Origin: an uncultured bacterium
GTDB lineage: Bacteria > Patescibacteriota > Minisyncoccia > Phycocordibacterales > UBA11359
Reading direction: 5' to 3'
Assembly: GCA_903831815.1 (NCBI GenBank)
Contig: CAIKZC010000005.1
Coordinates: 69-64,068 of the forward strand
DNA length: 64,000 nt
Shown here: positions 56,025-64,000 of the stretch, one piece after another
Layout: each line of letters begins with the position of its first letter
How positions within the stretch are numbered: position 1 is the stretch's first letter
Position numbers and translations under genes: made by a program
Notes under the pieces: generated by a model
What the model saw: only the letters and a program-made list of their open reading frames with translations
Told to the model about the DNA's origin: nothing
Databases searched by the model: none

Positions 56025-57263
56025 TTATAGCAGGGTTTTCAAAGAGTCTGAAATTTCAGTCGCTTTCAAGATTTTTTCGATGCCATCGGCTAAATTTTTG
56101 ATTCGATAAGCGCCACTTTTTACTTCCTCGGCGCCGACGGCCGTCACAAACGGAATTTTTTGCCGATCGGCAATTTTAATTTGATCGCCAAGTTTCTTTT
56201 GTGAAATATCAAGAACGACATCGGTACCATTGCGACGTAAAGTTGCCGCCAACATTTCGGCACTTTCTCGGCAAGTCTCATCTTGAATAGCGATGTAAAG
56301 CTGTGCGGAAGGTTTATATGTCGGCAAAAGTCCATGTGTTTCCAAAAAGTCTCGAATTGTTACGTCACCGGCACCGAATCCAACAGCCGGAATTTTATCG
56401 CCATCAAAAAGACTGGCTAAATCGTCATATCGTCCGCCACCAAATAGAGCACGACGGTTTTCTGGGTTTGTGTCATAAACTTCAAAAACAATTCCGGTGT
56501 AATAATCAAAACCGCGAACAATACTTGGATCAAAAACGATATTTTCAATATTATTTTTCTTGAGTAGGGAGATTACTTTTTCGACGTCATTGCTCGCCAC
56601 CTGACTCAGCTCAAAATTGTCGCCAGCGATAGCTTTTATTTTTTGTTGGAATTCTTCATGAGGCATTTTGCCTTTTTTGTCGATTATAAGGCGAAGTTCC
56701 TTGGCTTTTTCAGGCGTGAGATTGTATTTGGTTGCTTGCTCCTCCAACATTTTTCGACTGTTGATCCTGATCTCAAAATCACCGGCTTTAGCGCCAAAAG
56801 AAAGCATTATTTCGTGCGCGACAGCCAAAATTTCAACATCTGCCTGAATATTATCAACACCAAATAAGTCAACGTTTAACTGCCAGTGCTCGCGGGTGCG
56901 GCCACGTTGAGGCTTTTCGTATCGGAAAAGGTTAGGAATGGAATACCATCGTAAAGGAAAAACAAGTTCGCGACGTTTTGCGGCGACCATGCGAGCAACA
57001 GTTGGAGTCATTTCGGGGCGGAGTGTGACTTCACGATCACCTCGATCAGTAAAAGTGTATGTTTGTTCATTAACGATCTCTTCACCCGATTTTGCGCGAT
57101 ACAGTTCGGCAGGTTCCAAGACCGAAGCGCCATATTCCACATAACCAAACTTTTCAACCGCTTTGCGCATGCGTTCAAAAATATGTTTTTGTATAAACAT
57201 ATCTTCCGGATAAAAATCACGCACACCTTTGTAGCTTTCCGTCGAAAGTTTATTTGTTGCCAT
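56025..57263 (-). CDS. hisS: Histidyl-tRNA synthetase
   Basis: Class II motifs plus HisRS-specific GFDYYTGIVFEV and GGGRYDDL. C-terminal anticodon-binding domain. Confidence 0.9.
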   Translation of the reverse strand: MATNKLSTESYKGVRDFYPEDMFIQKHIFERMRKAVEKFGYVEYGASVLEPAELYRAKSGEEIVNEQTYTFTDRGDREVTLRPEMTPTVARMVAAKRRELVFPLRWYSIPNLFRYEKPQRGRTREHWQLNVDLFGVDNIQADVEILAVAHEIMLSFGAKAGDFEIRINSRKMLEEQATKYNLTPEKAKELRLIIDKKGKMPHEEFQQKIKAIAGDNFELSQVASNDVEKVISLLKKNNIENIVFDPSIVRGFDYYTGIVFEVYDTNPENRRALFGGGRYDDLASLFDGDKIPAVGFGAGDVTIRDFLETHGLLPTYKPSAQLYIAIQDETCRESAEMLAATLRRNGTDVVLDISQKKLGDQIKIADRQKIPFVTAVGAEEVKSGAYRIKNLADGIEKILKATEISDSLKTLL

Positions 57264-57398
57264 AATGCGTTTATTTTAACAGAAATTGAGTAATTCACAA
57301 TACATGATAATCTTGATTACCAAATTCAAATTGAGTATTTAAGTTATCCACACTTTTTCTTTTTTTGGCTATATATTTGATATAATGTACTCAATAAT

Positions 57399-58184
57399 AT
57401 GGCAAAAATCCTCGATCTTCGCAAAGATATCAATCCTCGTGTCAAAATCATCTACCGAACAATTACCAAGCGTCAACCTTGGTATGTAGAAATGACGAAA
57501 GTCTTAATTACCATAGCAGTAGTCACCACTATCGTTTGGGGAACCTCTCGTGCCGACAATCCAGGTAACACCGAAGTCAAAAACTTCAGTGCTATTGGTC
57601 TTGTATCTAATCTCTCCGACAAATCTCTTTCAATTGATCATGCTCGAAGCTCCGACAAAACCAATTCCGATAACTACAAATTCGACATTTCATCGGTGCA
57701 AAAGATTGAAACCGACGCCTACCTTGCTATGCTCTTTTCCGATATCAAGGTTGGTGACAAAGTTATCGTGCAAGGTCTACTAGATAATGGTGTTATCACT
57801 GCACGCCGCATTGTTGATTTTAGTTTCTCTTCTTCAACCGCGACAACTACTGCCACCACCACGGATGAAACTGCAACTTCAACTGCTACGACAACTGATA
57901 CAACTATCGACACAGGGACCGACACAACCATAGCAACAACTACTGACACCTTGATCTCAACATCAACCGACAACATAACTTCAATTACAACCGACGACTC
58001 GATTGCAACTTCTACTGGCAACGATTCAAATTCAAATGCTACAAGTTCAAACGACACATCAACTACTACTCCTGATCTAAACAACAACGCCGATATTTCT
58101 TCTTCAACCGAGGATGTTGTTTTACCTCCTCCGCCAATTCTTCCTGATCAAACCGATTCCACTTCGACGGAAAATAATATTTAA
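57399..58184 (+). CDS. Hypothetical membrane-anchored Thr/Asp-rich low-complexity protein
   Basis: TM segment LITIAVVTTIVWG, then TTDTT/TSTDN low-complexity repeats and a PPPP segment. Confidence 0.5.
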   Translation: MAKILDLRKDINPRVKIIYRTITKRQPWYVEMTKVLITIAVVTTIVWGTSRADNPGNTEVKNFSAIGLVSNLSDKSLSIDHARSSDKTNSDNYKFDISSVQKIETDAYLAMLFSDIKVGDKVIVQGLLDNGVITARRIVDFSFSSSTATTTATTTDETATSTATTTDTTIDTGTDTTIATTTDTLISTSTDNITSITTDDSIATSTGNDSNSNATSSNDTSTTTPDLNNNADISSSTEDVVLPPPPILPDQTDSTSTENNI

Positions 58185-58187
58185 AAA

Positions 58188-58808
58188 ATGAAATTTGGTT
58201 CACACACAAAACAATTTCTCTTTGGAATGATACTCATCATTCCTTTGTTGTTTCTTGCTAATCTCGCGCACGCTAAAGTAATCGATCCTGATCCATCAGG
58301 TACGACCGTTCTCACCAGTTGTGGCGAGTTGGCATATCCTGGAACATATCTCATCAACAGTGTCTTAACTAACACCGACAACCTTGATCCTTGTATTACC
58401 ATTACTTCTGATGACGTGATTATTGGTGGTGACGGCAGTGTTGGTTTTAATCAAGATATTTCCGCAACAGGATTATTACCTGGCGACCGAGGTTTAAATT
58501 TCACACTTCAGGATATTACTTTCTCCGGTGATGTTTCTTCACAAGGTAATGGAGAAGCCTTTGGTGGAACAATTACGTTTGGTGGAGACGCTGATCTTAG
58601 CGGTACAGCGATAGCTTCCTCAACTATATTTAATGGAAATAGTTACAACGAAGGTGACATCACAGCTTCCTCGACTATTTTTAATGGTAGTAGTTACAAT
58701 GATTCAAATGGTACTGTAAATGGTGATGCGGTTTTAATAATAATGGTAGAATCGATTGGCTTAAAACTTCTGCCCTCCAAGATGACGCTTGGCGTTCGAT
58801 TGCGATGA
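58188..58808 (+). CDS. N-terminal segment (signal peptide and beta-helix-like repeats) of a giant BNR-repeat surface protein; frame breaks near 58735-58745
   Basis: Signal peptide MKFGSHTKQFLFGMILIIPLLFLANLAHA. The downstream frame (58727 onward) is open and continues with ...AWRSIAMSADGNRMFG, which is already a BNR repeat unit. A frameshift at the AATAATAATGG run joins the two ORFs. Confidence 0.6.
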   Translation: MKFGSHTKQFLFGMILIIPLLFLANLAHAKVIDPDPSGTTVLTSCGELAYPGTYLINSVLTNTDNLDPCITITSDDVIIGGDGSVGFNQDISATGLLPGDRGLNFTLQDITFSGDVSSQGNGEAFGGTITFGGDADLSGTAIASSTIFNGNSYNEGDITASSTIFNGSSYNDSNGTVNGDAVLIIMVESIGLKLLPSKMTLGVRLR

Positions 58809-61120
58809 GCGCTGATGGTAATCGAATGTTTGGCACTAGTTACAATGGAGGAATTTTTGAATATTCGAGCACCACGGATACATGGAATCAAATGTCAGGT
58901 ATAAGTGGGCAGCATACTTTATTTTCAATTGTCTCAAATGCTGCCGGAAATAAATTGGCCGCAACTGATTATGGTGGTTCCATTTGGGTATATTCGGATT
59001 CTTCGAGAGTTTGGACTGAAGCCACTGGGACAAGTGGACAAAATTGGGATGCGATAACTTCGAACGCCGCCGGAGATCGCTTGTTTGCGACTATTGATGG
59101 CAATTCCTCGATTTGGAAGTATTCAGATTCGGTCGGTAGTTGGGCAGAAATGCCTAATACCAGTGATCAGTATGGTTGGTATGGGATTACTTCAAACTCG
59201 GCAGGCGATCGACTCTTTGCTTTTGATGCCCATAATAATATTTGGACTTATTCAGATGTTTCAGGCGTTTGGGTTCAGCCGGCAGAAACGGAAGGTCATT
59301 ATTTTGCTAATAGCATTGCTTCAAATGCCGCCGGGGATAGAGCATATGCAATAGAAGTTAATAACGGAACATCTATATGGACATATTCCAGTGGATCGGG
59401 CTGGGCGAAAGCGACATCGACGGATGGGTATGGTTGGCAATCGGTAACATCAAATGCTGCTGGTGACAAAGTGGCAGCAGTCGACGGAAGCAACGGTGCA
59501 ATTTGGACATCATCTGATTATGGTGATCACTGGACTAAATTAAGTGAAACCGATAACAATAGTTGGTGGCGAATAGTTTCGAATGCTAATGGTGAGAAAT
59601 TGGCTGCAATAGATCAGGGTCATGGTTTTGTTTGGACCCATAGCGATGGGGTTTTTGGATCTCGTTATCTAACTTACAATGCAGGTGTAATTAATGGTGA
59701 TGCGACATTTACTGCCGATTCATATTCTTGGAACTCGGGCACTGCTCCCTTTCCTCAATTGGGAGACGTTACCGGAAACATCAAATTTATTCCTTCTTCG
59801 GGAACGACGACAATAACGTTTAACATTGGAATTAAGGAAACCAATTATGCTTGCGGTGAGGATATCTGTGTCTTTGGAGACGATACGTCCAATTGGGATT
59901 TTGGCGATTTTAATTCCGTATTTAATTTCTATGGTAATAGTCAATTTTATTCGGAAATTAAAGCTAGTACTGTAGTATTCAATGATATTAGTGTCAGTAA
60001 TTCCAATGAGATCATTGCTTCTACGACAATTTTTAATGATAATTCTGTTAATTTTACAAACAATATTATTGCCTCCCAAGCAATTTTCAATGACGGATGT
60101 TCTGGTAGTGGTTCAATAACCGCAAATTCAGTAGTATTTAATGATGAGAGTGTTATTTACGGTAATATTGATGCGGAATCTGTAGTTTATAATGATCAAA
60201 GTTTCAACGGAAGTTCGGTTTATGCGTCTACGACGATATTTAATAATGGGAGTAATAATGCAGGTGAGGTCAATGCCGAGATGACAACTTTTAACGATGA
60301 AAGTCACAATGATAGTGAAATAAACGGAAACGCCACGTTTAATATATCATGGGTTGATTGGACGAACATCCCTGAAACAAATGAACACAATTGGGATTCA
60401 GTTGTCTCAAACTCTGTTGGTGACAGACTGGCTGCGACAGTATACTACGGTTCCATCTGGATGTATTCAACTTCGACTGGTGTGTGGGCAGAAGCACCGG
60501 GCACAAGTGGTCAAGGTTGGGGGACTATCGCCTCAAACTCTGTCGGAGATCGTCTGGCTGCTGTTAGTCAAGGAGGTTCCATTTGGTCATACTCAGACTC
60601 AACCGGAGTATGGACTGAGTTTCCCGGTACCGACGAGCATAATTGGCAATCCGTTACCTCAAACTCTGTCGGAGATCGTTTAGCTGCAGTAGAGTATAGG
60701 GGTTCTATCTGGATGTATTCAGACTCAGACGGTGTTTGGACCGAAGCCACCGGTACCAGCGAGCATTCTTGGTATTCTATTGTTTCAAATGCTGTCGGAG
60801 ACAGACTAGCTGCTGTTGATAGTAGTGGTTCAATCTGGACATACTCAGACTCAACAGGTGTCTGGGCTGAAATTCCTAATACCAGCGGACCTAGTTGGCA
60901 ATCCCTCACGTCTAATGCTGAAGGTGACCGATTAGCGGCAGTTGATTACAATAACGATGGTTCTATTTGGACTTCATCTGATTATGGTGATCACTGGAGT
61001 GAAGTTCCTAATACAATAGGACAGGGTGGTGGTTGGTATTCTGTTGCTTCAAATGCCGAAGGTGATCGATTGGTCGCCGGCGAGTACTCCGGTGGTTCAC
61101 TTTGGACTTCTTCTGACTAG
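58805..61120 (+). CDS. BNR/Asp-box repeat beta-propeller surface protein, middle segment, ending at an in-frame TAG
   Basis: Dozens of repeats of the form W.SITSNAAGDRLAA...SIWTYSDS.GVWTE (SxDxGxTW Asp-box). The TAG at 61118-61120 interrupts a repeat (SSD-TAG-GVTWT), and the same frame stays open to the window end. Confidence 0.7.
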   Translation: MSADGNRMFGTSYNGGIFEYSSTTDTWNQMSGISGQHTLFSIVSNAAGNKLAATDYGGSIWVYSDSSRVWTEATGTSGQNWDAITSNAAGDRLFATIDGNSSIWKYSDSVGSWAEMPNTSDQYGWYGITSNSAGDRLFAFDAHNNIWTYSDVSGVWVQPAETEGHYFANSIASNAAGDRAYAIEVNNGTSIWTYSSGSGWAKATSTDGYGWQSVTSNAAGDKVAAVDGSNGAIWTSSDYGDHWTKLSETDNNSWWRIVSNANGEKLAAIDQGHGFVWTHSDGVFGSRYLTYNAGVINGDATFTADSYSWNSGTAPFPQLGDVTGNIKFIPSSGTTTITFNIGIKETNYACGEDICVFGDDTSNWDFGDFNSVFNFYGNSQFYSEIKASTVVFNDISVSNSNEIIASTTIFNDNSVNFTNNIIASQAIFNDGCSGSGSITANSVVFNDESVIYGNIDAESVVYNDQSFNGSSVYASTTIFNNGSNNAGEVNAEMTTFNDESHNDSEINGNATFNISWVDWTNIPETNEHNWDSVVSNSVGDRLAATVYYGSIWMYSTSTGVWAEAPGTSGQGWGTIASNSVGDRLAAVSQGGSIWSYSDSTGVWTEFPGTDEHNWQSVTSNSVGDRLAAVEYRGSIWMYSDSDGVWTEATGTSEHSWYSIVSNAVGDRLAAVDSSGSIWTYSDSTGVWAEIPNTSGPSWQSLTSNAEGDRLAAVDYNNDGSIWTSSDYGDHWSEVPNTIGQGGGWYSVASNAEGDRLVAGEYSGGSLWTSSD

Positions 61121-64000
61121 GGTGTCACCTGGACAAAAGTACCTTATACCGGTGACGATTCTCATGATTGGTTCGCAGTTTCTTCAAATGCCACCGGTGA
61201 TAGATTAACTGCAGCAGATGAAGGCAGTGTTGGATCCCTTTGGACTCATACCGACGGTGCCTATGAATTTAAACCACTTAGCTACAATGATGGAACGATA
61301 AACGGTGACGCAATATTTACAGCTGACTCATACCCATTTGATATGTGGGATGGAGGACGTTATGAAGGATGGGCCCCTCAATTTGGTAATGTTTCCGAGA
61401 AGGTTCGTTTCTTTCCATCATCCGGCACAACAACAGTAACCTTTAATATTGGGACAAAAGGAGTTGATTCTGCTTGCGATGGCGAGACGTGTGTTTTTGG
61501 AGACGACACTTCCAATTGGGATTTTGGTGATTTAAATTCCGTATTTAATTTTTATGGAAACAGTAAAAATGATGCGGTTGTTTTCGGAAAAACTTTTGTG
61601 TTCAATGACGAAAGTGCTGTCGAAACTGGCATTATTACCGCTTCCTCAACAATTTTTAACGATTCTAGTTACAATAATTCTGAAATATACGGCGATGCTA
61701 TTTTCAATACTTCCAGAGTTGCTGTTGGTTGGCTACCAAATAACGTAGGAAATGGAGATCAATATTGGGTTTCAATTGCTTCCAATTCCACTGGCGATCG
61801 GTTGGTCGCTGTTGATAATAATCATGGTTCAATTTGGACATACTCCGATGCAACAGGCTCATGGACTGAAGCTCCGGGAACCAATGGACATAATTGGTGG
61901 TCGGTCACCTCAAACGCCGCCGGTGACCGACTAGCTGCCGTTAACTATGATAATAACATTGGTACAATTTGGACATACTCGGATGCTTCCGGCGTTTGGA
62001 CTGAAATACCTGGAATAAGCGGACATTCTTGGGAATCAATAACTTCAAACGCCGCCGGTGACCGATTGACTGCTGTTTACGATGATTATGTTGATCATGT
62101 TCCTTCCGGCACCATTTGGACATACTCGGATGCATCTGGAGTTTGGGTCGAAGCGTCGGAAGCTAGTGGACATAATTGGTATTCTGTAACTTCAAACGCC
62201 GCCGGTGACCGACTAGCTGCAGTTAGTTATGATTATGATATACCTGGCTCAATTTGGACCTACTCAGCCACTTTGGGAGTTTGGACAGAAGCAGAAGGCA
62301 CAAGCGGACACAATTGGTATGGTATCACATCAAATGCTGCTGGAGATCGACTGGCTGCAGTTGAAATGGGCGGCTCAATTTGGACCTACTCAGACACTTC
62401 GGGAGTTTGGACAGAAGCACCCGGTACAAGTGGTAGTAGTTGGCAATCGATCACCTCAAACGCCGCTGGCGACAGATTGGTTGCGTCAGACTATGCTTCT
62501 GGAGCAATTTGGACATATTCAGACTCAATAGGTGTTTGGACAGAAGAACCGGGAACAGATGGACATCGATGGAATTCAATAACTTCAAACGCTACCGGCG
62601 AACGACTGGCTGCGGTTGATAATGATAATATCTTTACATATACGGATGGTCTTTTTGAGAATAAGTCTTTGAGTTACAATCACGGTGTGATATATGGCGA
62701 CGCCACTTTCACAGCCGATTCATATTCGTGGAATTCTTGGGGCGGCGGTAATTTGGAGGATTTTGTTCCTCAGGTAGGAGGAGTTTCTGGAAAAGTAAAA
62801 TTTGTTCCACAATCTGGCACAACCACGATCACATTTAATATTGGGACAAATTCTGCTTGCGATGGCGAGACGTGTGTTTTTGGAGACGACACTTCCAATT
62901 GGGATTTTGGTGATTTAAATTCCGTATTTAATTTCTATGGAGATAGTGAAAGTTATCCAAATATTTCAGCAAAAAATGTCGCTTTTTATGACAATAGCGT
63001 TAATGGATCTAATTTAATAGTCACAAACTGTGAATTCAATGATAACAGTACTAATAGTAATTACATAACCGGTCACTCAATAATATTTAAAGATAATTCA
63101 AGTAATAGTAGCTCGGTTTTTGGTGACAACGTCGATATTTATTTCCCAGTTAACAAACCTTTGGGTGGAACAGTATCGGGTATTGTAACTTACCACGGAT
63201 ATCCGGGATTCTATTTCAACGATCAAGCAGACGGCGCTGCCGGAGACGGGGATTGGAATAACGATCTAAATTGGTGGAGTGACGATGCTTTTACCACTCC
63301 TGCCGATGCAATTCCAACCGCAACTGATGATGTTTATATTTACACAGACATCTTGACTGGCAGTGGTTTAGCGCAAACCATTACATTCGAAAATGGTGCT
63401 AAAAACAAATCTACCGTGACCTCTGTTAATGGCACCACGTTCACCGCAACTTCGAGCAACGAAGGTACAGTTCATGGCAAAACCACCTTCTATGGTGACA
63501 AGACAAATAACACGGGAACTATCTCTAGTCCTAGTTGGAGCAAAGTGGATAATTCTGCAGTTTATTGGCAGTCTGTAGCTTCGAACGCTGCTGGCGATAA
63601 GTTATTTGCAGTCGACAGCAACAATAATGGCGCTATTTGGAAATATACAGACGCTTCCGGAAAGTGGGCTGAGGTGAATGGAACAGAATACGAAAGTGGG
63701 TGGATGTCTATCGCCTCAAACTCTGTCGGAGATCGTTTGGCCGCAATCGATTATGATGGAAATATTTGGGCATACACAGATACTTCCGGAGTTTGGACCG
63801 AGGTACAGGAAAATATTTTTAACGGATGGTACTTTCAAATTACTTCAAACGCCGATGGGGATCGCTTGGCGGCAGTTGATAATAATAAGGGTTCCATTTG
63901 GACATACTCAGATTCTTCCGGTGTTTGGGCTGAAGCTACAGGAACAAGTGGACATGATTGGATGAGTATCGCTTCTAACGCCGTCGGAAATCGATTGGCT
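61121..64000 (+). CDS. BNR/Asp-box repeat protein, continuation in the same frame (partial; runs off the window)
   Basis: No stop in frame from 61121 to 64000. Same repeat architecture. Contains the three about 1.4-kb intragenic direct repeats (ACDGETCVFGDDTSNWDFGDLNSVFNFYG modules). Confidence 0.65.

Follow-up and report, generated by a model that had tools for sequence, protein, structure and literature searches.

Bacterial genes for large surface proteins and adhesins are known to become pseudogenes through frameshift and nonsense mutations. The frame is cut by an indel of a single base within a short homopolymer and by a single-base nonsense change but is otherwise intact, homologues are uninterrupted, and the population is fixed for the lesions. 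In programmed -1 frameshifting, as in dnaX and the IS3-family transposases, overlapping frame 0 and frame -1 ORFs encode one protein. In contingency loci the 5' coding region contains either a long homopolymer (about seven or more) or a tract of several repeat units. The proteins with BNR/Asp-box propellers (BNR_6 PF15899, Sortilin-Vps10 PF15902, PSII_BNR/Ycf48 PF14870) are seven-bladed propellers with canonical S-x-D-x-G-x-x-W boxes between the blades. Giant repeat proteins of uncultured bacteria are very long extracellular proteins with amplified propeller or beta-helix modules; short-read assemblies break up their genes, and in one case adjacent ORFs were merged after curation (bioRxiv 10.1101/2023.11.21.568195).

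The giant gene described here starts at position 58188, on the plus strand, of a 64-kb window (the whole stretch of DNA that was analysed, 64,000 nucleotides) and runs past the window end at 64000. The source organism probably belongs to the CPR (Candidate Phyla Radiation) bacteria. A preliminary description had read the gene as a BNR/Asp-box surface protein gene broken by one frameshift and one in-frame TAG, and had left four options: a recent pseudogene, sequencing or assembly errors, programmed frameshift and readthrough, or simple-repeat phase variation. The gene resembles those of the giant repeat proteins in its modules and in its fragmentation in short-read assemblies, but its split is not an assembly error and the protein is smaller, about 2000-3300 aa rather than of the >10,000 aa class. 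The first of the four options is the one that the evidence favours: the gene is very probably a young pseudogene, recently inactivated in this lineage.

Results

The gene begins with two overlapping ORFs in different frames, ORF1 (58188-58808; 206 aa, stop TGA) and ORF2 (58805-61120; 771 aa, stop TAG). The suggestion that they are parts of one gene held: the ORF2 frame is open from 58727 and is homologous before its first ATG, where it encodes ..FNNNGRIDWLKTSALQDDAWRSIA, alignable with the intact relative P0001. Reconstructed across both lesions, the gene spans 1938 codons or more up to the window end, and the whole is probably about 3000 codons. It is one coding unit, in which a signal peptide and a small head at the N-terminus precede a chain of seven-bladed propellers with linker modules between them.

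All the modules lie on the plus strand. The signal peptide (58188..58274), read off the sequence, is MKFGSHTKQFLFGMILIIPLLFLANLAHA followed by KV, and N-termini of the same kind are found in P0001 and seven metagenome relatives. The head (CGELAYPGTY..C.TITSDDVII) and the short FN-type repeats after it complete the frame 0 stretch 58188..58735, which covers ancestral residues 1-182. Propeller 1 (58736..59668, seven blades) is in frame -1 with respect to the start codon and aligns with propeller 3. Linker module 1 (59669..60331) has a '..TFNIG..CGEDICVFGDDTSNWDFG..' domain and then FND repeats (families D5, D6 and D8). The TAG falls between blades 6 and 7 of the seven-bladed propeller 2 (60332..61270). 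Linker modules 2 (61271..61702) and 3 (62666..63520) flank the seven-bladed propeller 3 (61703..62665), which is 3' of both lesions and undamaged. Propeller 4 (63521..64000) is represented by its first four blades before the gene exceeds the window. The linkers are ~140-285 aa each. An exact 85-nt repeat (61467..61551, plus strand, identical to 62850-62934) lies within linkers whose identity is about 70% elsewhere, and the blades are mutually only 60-78% identical.

Three nucleotides 5' of the giant gene is a gene for a 261-aa protein (57399..58184, plus strand) that has a hydrophobic segment at its N-terminus and a tail rich in Thr/Ser, and the two are probably co-transcribed. P0001 is also preceded by a small gene, of 263 aa. 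A promoter and terminator scan gave hits at chance level only.

The BNR/Asp-box label proved partly right. In its favour are three canonical boxes among the 24 blades, the propeller fold, and homologues with precomputed BNR_6 and Sortilin-Vps10 matches. Against it, most blades are variant, with 11 exact matches among the 24 to a shifted S-D-x-x-G-x-W, and BNR_6 scores 18.5 bits on the giant protein, short of its cut-off of 27. The three fragments and the upstream 261-aa gene had no match above threshold in Pfam or NCBIfam scans, and a PDB sequence search with one propeller and one linker (linker 2) gave no match at E <= 1. The AlphaFold2 model of propeller 3 (61703-62665; pLDDT 84.5, pTM 0.87) has 7 x 4 strands, and its best Foldseek matches in the PDB are seven-bladed propellers (TM about 0.7) of the generic WD40 type. 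The giant protein is thus predicted to carry the beta-propeller fold with four-stranded blades. Unlike the known BNR/Asp-box proteins, it chains at least four propellers, and its head and linker modules are novel.

Homology to P0001 follows frame 0 up to '..TVNGDAV' and frame -1 from 'FNNNG' onward, which places lesion 1 in the T4 run at 58732..58735 (plus strand). The ancestral reading is GTT TTY AAT ('..GDAVFNNNG..'); one base of GTT TTY (Val-Phe) is missing, the -1 frame follows, and the junction TVNGDAV/FNN aligns with P0001 'TVNGNANFND'. The shift had been placed near 58735-58745. A one-base shift was correct, but its site is the T4 run and not the adjacent AAT run, three units at 58736-58744 directly 3' of it. 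Beyond the lesion ORF1 continues out of frame (58736..58808, plus strand) as LIIMVESIGLKLLPSKMTLGVRLR and ends at a TGA, which overlaps the first ATG of the ORF2 frame as ATGA (58805-58808).

Lesion 2 (61118..61120, plus strand) is a TAG in place of a Tyr codon in a canonical Asp-box (SSD-Y-GVTW), read as LWTSSD(stop)GVTWTK. The TAG thus interrupts an Asp-box as SSD-TAG-GVTW, as had been described. The paralogous boxes (family D7) read SSDYGDHW with Tyr as TAT, so the lesion is one third-position change from TAY. Blades of P0001 have 'SADYGVTW' and 'STDFGVTW' at the equivalent motif.

As first described, the frame past the TAG is uninterrupted to the window end, with no stops in 960 codons against 30 and 101 in the two other forward frames. 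Over both stretches after the lesions (797 + 960 codons) the gene's frame has none, against 22-101 in other frames. TAG is also a genuine stop elsewhere in the 64-kb window, where it ends tsf, trmD, rpoD and thrS, and the Pfam domains of all four reach the C-termini. This speaks against reassignment or pyrrolysine-type decoding of TAG. The only tRNA in the window is a tRNA-Thr.

P0001 (3274 aa) is one continuous ORF that aligns colinearly across both lesion sites. Behind the same head, seven loci from metagenomes have frames of 900-2842 codons or frames open to the contig end. P0001 and the loci L011, L013, L014, L017, L018 and L019 each have a single frame, and the frameshift is not conserved. 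By sequence comparison, intact homologues have conserved coding sequence at the positions of both lesions. A short relative, P0052, was considered as a recurrent frameshift and rejected, as it is a truly small protein of 168 aa whose C-terminus is different.

The family is rare and unannotated, its architecture being a string of seven-bladed propellers behind a conserved secreted head. An exhaustive HMMER search found only 18 head relatives among 1.84 billion representative proteins; the complete ones are mostly the starts of 1000-3300 aa proteins. Neither that exhaustive search nor a word-indexed search of 5.8 billion clusters found an intact close allele. A scan for orthologues in JGI metagenomes and in the representative genomes of GTDB yielded only relatives at 30-47% identity, and the nearest orthologue available is 42% identical in the head domain and 27-28% over the whole protein.

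Short-read metagenome contigs from other samples match the window at 99.9-100% identity and share the T4 run (ERZ18626762, ERZ27313102, ERZ18625277, ERZ27313089, ERZ27313080, ERZ18625396 and ERZ18626558). The lesion 1 site is identical in L001/L005, L004, L006, L007, L008, L028 and L029, and the exact 206-aa frameshift product is on record for 16 contigs, with the frameshift in 16/16. Both DNA contigs that extend to 61118 carry the TAG (ERZ18626762 and ERZ27313102). ERZ1426681 has the same 206/771-aa gene sizes, from which its TAG is inferred, so that the TAG is present in all four contigs reaching 61118 (L001/L005, L004 and, by gene sizes, ERZ1426681). The identical contigs cover at least seven samples and come from MEGAHIT-style (k141) and two other assembly series. 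They differ elsewhere by a few SNPs or indels, so the lesions are common to more than one haplotype; the only SNP inside the gene is synonymous (position 59203) and without statistical weight.

These contigs make an artefact extremely unlikely. The gene is repetitive, the short-read contigs do break off at the 85-nt exact repeat (61467..61551), and one lesion sits in a homopolymer. The same bases nevertheless recur in all three assembly series. Collapse or chimerism is not expected at the lesions, since the surrounding DNA is only 60-78% identical to the paralogous blades, and a T-to-G or C-to-G substitution is an atypical systematic error. Both lesions are genuine and not errors of sequencing or assembly. 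They are fixed in the sampled population, and the contigs may share one study site. A search of the literature for the sample accessions returned nothing.

The same contigs speak against the idea that slipped-strand mispairing, in the T-run or in the AAT repeat, makes a surface antigen phase-variable; we regard this idea as almost certainly wrong. The protein is of a surface type and the lesion adjoins two short simple repeats, but T4 and (AAT)3 are much shorter than the tracts that switch usefully in known contingency loci. They are the only tracts there; the 5' coding region has no long homopolymer or multi-unit tract. Each has one length in every contig with DNA (8/8), while a nearby intergenic T7/T8 tract varies. 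The second lesion, a nonsense mutation further downstream, is also non-reversible.

The interruptions could instead be kept on purpose, with -1 slippage at GTT-TTA and readthrough of a leaky UAG throttling a costly giant adhesin so that little full-length protein is made. That the frames are perfectly preserved past both interruptions, and that the lesions are fixed in all contigs, would fit such recoding. The known cases of dnaX and IS3 have what this junction lacks. There is no X_XXY_YYZ slippery heptamer among the zero-frame codons of the 27-codon overlap (58727-58808), no hairpin or pseudoknot was found 5-9 nt downstream of the slip site, and an Rfam E-value scan returned no frameshift or readthrough element. 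A strong hairpin does begin about 40 nt 3' of the T-run. We rejected it as a stimulator, as the spacing is wrong and sliding-window z-scores are similar in other windows of the gene. Re-pairing of the tRNAs from GTT to GGT or from TTA to TTT would be poor, TAG is a normal stop in this genome's tsf, trmD, rpoD and thrS, and neither interruption recurs in the relatives compared by head domain, all <=42% identical in the head. A simple deletion in the ancestral GTT TTY explains the junction. We consider programmed frameshifting and readthrough very unlikely, and deliberate throttling equally so. If throttling were true, selection would be keeping the undamaged 1750-codon downstream frame, and a CPR bacterium would have a non-canonical, double-recoding form of control.

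It is also quite improbable that the gene is split but still expressed, its pieces acting separately or assembling: a secreted ORF1 product (206 aa), ORF2 translated by termination-reinitiation at the ATGA, and a third piece after the TAG. The stop/start overlap at 58805-58808 would permit reinitiation, a stable hairpin surrounds it (z = -3.1), and the long downstream frames are undamaged. An A preceding a TGA stop arises by chance ~30% of the time, however, and hairpins with a similar z-score occur elsewhere in the gene. The ORF2 ATG lies in the middle of blade 1, so its product would be short of part of a propeller. Within 450 nt after the TAG there is a single in-frame start, an ATG 74 codons further along that falls inside a domain. 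Both downstream pieces lack a signal peptide, though the protein is built for export, and the relatives are single ORFs. A check for Shine-Dalgarno sequences was uninformative, as bona fide genes in the window have no such motifs and their leaders are AT-rich.

Discussion

Recent decay accounts for a gene with lesions at conserved positions, intact relatives and an otherwise undamaged frame. A one-base deletion in the T-run at codon 183 would have reduced the product to a 206-aa secreted stub. The TAY-to-TAG nonsense change at codon 978, an independent point lesion, was probably a later, neutral hit. The downstream 1750+ codons would no longer give rise to an exported product, though a little translation beyond either lesion may still take place.

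The inactivation appears to be young, as the gene has gathered no more damage. Of the possible substitutions about 4.5% create a stop, so a single nonsense change points to only a few tens of neutral substitutions.

The gene differs from the described adhesin pseudogenes in its setting. The genome is probably of the CPR type, in which one would expect few pseudogenes and their rapid deletion, and at 5.8 kb or more the gene is probably about 1% of such a genome.

The result is a clean negative: a frameshift and an in-frame stop in a repetitive metagenomic gene turn out most likely to be ordinary recent decay, and not artefact or recoding. It indicates that streamlined CPR-type genomes can hold a 6-10 kb pseudogene, fixed across samples. 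The intact giant surface protein may mediate attachment, and a pseudogene of this size at fixation suggests that the loss of such a large surface protein was recent and possibly selected.

Results

The giant gene occupies the forward strand from 58188 to the end of the window in three pieces. ORF1 (58188-58808, 206 aa) ends at TGA and ORF2 (58805-61120, 771 aa), in a different frame, at TAG. As the preliminary description reported, the two overlap and the ORF2 frame is open already from 58727. Beyond the TAG (61118-61120) that frame has no stop in the 960 codons left in the window, against 30 and 101 in the two remaining forward frames, so the long frames are coding sequence rather than chance. 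The joined pieces make 1938 codons, in keeping with the earlier figure of more than 1,900.

The signal peptide at the start of the protein ends in AHA|K; next is a head of about 150 aa that carries the motif CGELAYPGTY...C.TITSDDVII along with short FN repeats. Seven-bladed propellers are encoded at 58736-59668, 60332-61270 and 61703-62665, and a further propeller from 63521 onward. The linker modules between them share '..TFNIG..C(D/G)GE(T/D)CVFGDDTSNWDFG..' and FND repeats. An AlphaFold2 model of the third propeller (pLDDT 84.5, pTM 0.87) has 7 x 4 strands, and the top PDB hits that Foldseek gave for it are 7-bladed propellers of generic type (TM about 0.7). A PDB sequence search found no match and curated-library scans gave none above threshold (BNR_6 reached 18.5 bits, cut-off 27), but homologues carry precomputed BNR_6, Sortilin-Vps10 and PSII_BNR matches. 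The original BNR/Asp-box label thus stands as a likeness rather than as Pfam-threshold membership, and 'BNR/Asp-box-like propeller protein' is a fair description. Within two linkers that are otherwise about 70% identical, an 85-nt block (61467-61551 and 62850-62934) is exactly identical, synonymous sites included, which suggests recent intragenic gene conversion; the short-read contigs L001/L005 and L004 stop at this block.

The best homologue, P0001, is an intact protein of 3274 aa from the same ENA series, 27-28% identical over 92% of the query, with head, propellers and linkers in the same order. As a 263-aa gene precedes P0001 and a 261-aa gene (57399-58184) precedes the giant gene, the small and giant genes may form a conserved pair. 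The 261-aa protein, which had no family match, carries a hydrophobic segment at its N-terminus and a long low-complexity tail rich in Thr, Ser and Asp. Relatives of the head are rare: an exhaustive HMMER search of 1.84 billion representatives found only 18, the closest 42% identical. Seven metagenome head loci have frames open for 900-2842 codons or up to the contig end. When the reconstructed junction was used as query in a word-indexed search, the 206-aa product of the frameshift was the only match, and no intact allele came up. We rejected the idea that the short head relatives are shifted genes, as P0052 (L030:260-766, L031:113-619) is a real, small secreted protein of 168 aa with a different tail. 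It has the same head (CGELAAPGTY..TVTSSGVII) followed by CYQCH, a haem-binding-like CxxCH motif, so the head is also used outside giant proteins.

At the frameshift, frame 0 gives '..SSYNDSNGTVNGDAV' and frame -1 carries on as 'FNNNGRIDWLKTSALQDDAWRSIAMSADGNRMF..', while P0001 reads '..NNTVNGNANFNDLSYNAARSWAEQTVPGFRNWKSIASSGNGTKLV' across this point, placing the junction inside GTT-TT|AAT. An ancestral GTT TTY AAT AAT AAT is thus one base short, the loss being at the T4 run 58732-58735; the AAT run (58736-58744) to which the shift had first been assigned directly adjoins it but is not the lesion. The TAG, which had first been described as lying in an Asp-box, occupies the x4 residue of the protein's best such box, SSD*GVTW. 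Paralogous boxes of repeat family D7 read SSDYGDHW (codons GAT TAT GGT) and those of P0001 SADYGVTW and STDFGVTW; the second lesion is explained by one substitution in the third codon position, from TAY to TAG.

Discussion

Sequencing or assembly error was one of the four explanations initially left open. Searching public assemblies for neighbouring proteins yielded contigs that come from several samples and belong to three assembly series (ERZ1426xxx, ERZ186xxxxx 'BUCK21-1' scaffolds and ERZ273130xx k141 contigs). Through the frameshift, L001/L005, L004, L006, L007, L008, L028 and L029 match the window at 99.9-100% identity, and L001/L005 and L004 reach past the TAG. The exact 206-aa product with its out-of-frame tail occurs in 16 contigs, and ERZ1426681 has a matching 261/206/771-aa series, judged from gene sizes rather than DNA. 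The contigs differ from the window elsewhere, at 56215, at 59203 (synonymous) and in an intergenic T7/T8 tract (57353-57359), so the lesions are common to more than one haplotype. The blades are only 60-78% identical in DNA, so neither lesion lies in near-identical repeats. On the assembled DNA, then, both lesions are real and an artefact is very unlikely. All the assemblies may come from one study site; a literature search found no paper citing the sample accessions.

Two contigs depart from the window upstream. In L006:1-1246 (upstream of 57338), from one sample, the 261-aa gene and frameshifted giant gene follow iPGM-like and DUF6943 genes, not hisS, with the join in the promoter region beside the T7/T8 polymorphism. 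The strain may be rearranged here, there may be a second copy, or the contig may be chimeric. L029:1-184 diverges upstream of 57971, inside the Thr/Ser-rich part of the 261-aa gene, and may reflect variation or misassembly in that tract.

Phase variation, another of the early options, is unlikely, as the T4 and (AAT)3 tracts fall short of what contingency-type slippage needs and do not vary in length between contigs.

Programmed frameshifting and readthrough fare no better. Reading the 27-codon overlap revealed no X_XXY_YYZ heptamer, and an Rfam scan returned nothing at E <= 1. The T-run lies within a weak 8-bp hairpin. A strong hairpin (about 58774-58851; 141-nt fold, -42.5 kcal/mol, z = -3.1), its apical part surrounding the ATGA overlap of ORF1 and ORF2, starts about 40 nt 3' of the T-run, mis-spaced for recoding; it may be incidental, since other windows of the gene have equal or stronger z-scores (comparable at about 59110 and 61540-61570). 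The genes tsf, trmD, rpoD and thrS have complete domains and terminate at TAG, as had been said of tsf and rpoD, and TAG is an ordinary terminator here. P0001 and the metagenome relatives are open across the sites, and non-canonical recoding is very unlikely.

An expressed split gene could use the ATGA (58805-58808), where the ORF1 stop overlaps an ATG and might permit reinitiation. However, this Met lies inside blade 1 and its product would have no signal peptide, while the sole in-frame start within 450 nt after the TAG is 74 codons on, mid-domain. These four alternatives share only a small part of the probability.

The window begins with a 16S rRNA gene in two parts (1-739 and 1973-2628), between which lies an insertion, about 1.23 kb long, whose ORF (889-1764, 292 codons) encodes a LAGLIDADG-type homing endonuclease (Pfam LAGLIDADG_3, E 1.7e-9). 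Such insertions are typical of CPR bacteria. Gene starts (e.g. 57399, 40410, 32837, 6813) lack Shine-Dalgarno motifs, and MAGs of Candidatus Taylorbacteria and Paceibacterota hold the giant protein's nearest named relatives. From these features the genome is probably of the CPR/Patescibacteria. The same gene starts follow AT-rich regions, and the 261-aa gene has a TTGATA..TATAAT-like promoter no more than about 10-30 nt 5' of its ATG, as if leaders were very short or mRNAs leaderless.

All the results are explained most simply if the giant gene is a young pseudogene, which we consider likely: its lesions are real, its relatives are uninterrupted and its frame is otherwise intact. The 5' frameshift, at codon 183, would remove more than 90% of the exported protein, and the nonsense codon would be a second hit. 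About 4.5% of possible substitutions would make a stop. At that rate a nonsense change and an indel within 5.8 kb or more would correspond to no more than a few tens of neutral changes, which fits a frame that is pristine in all other respects.
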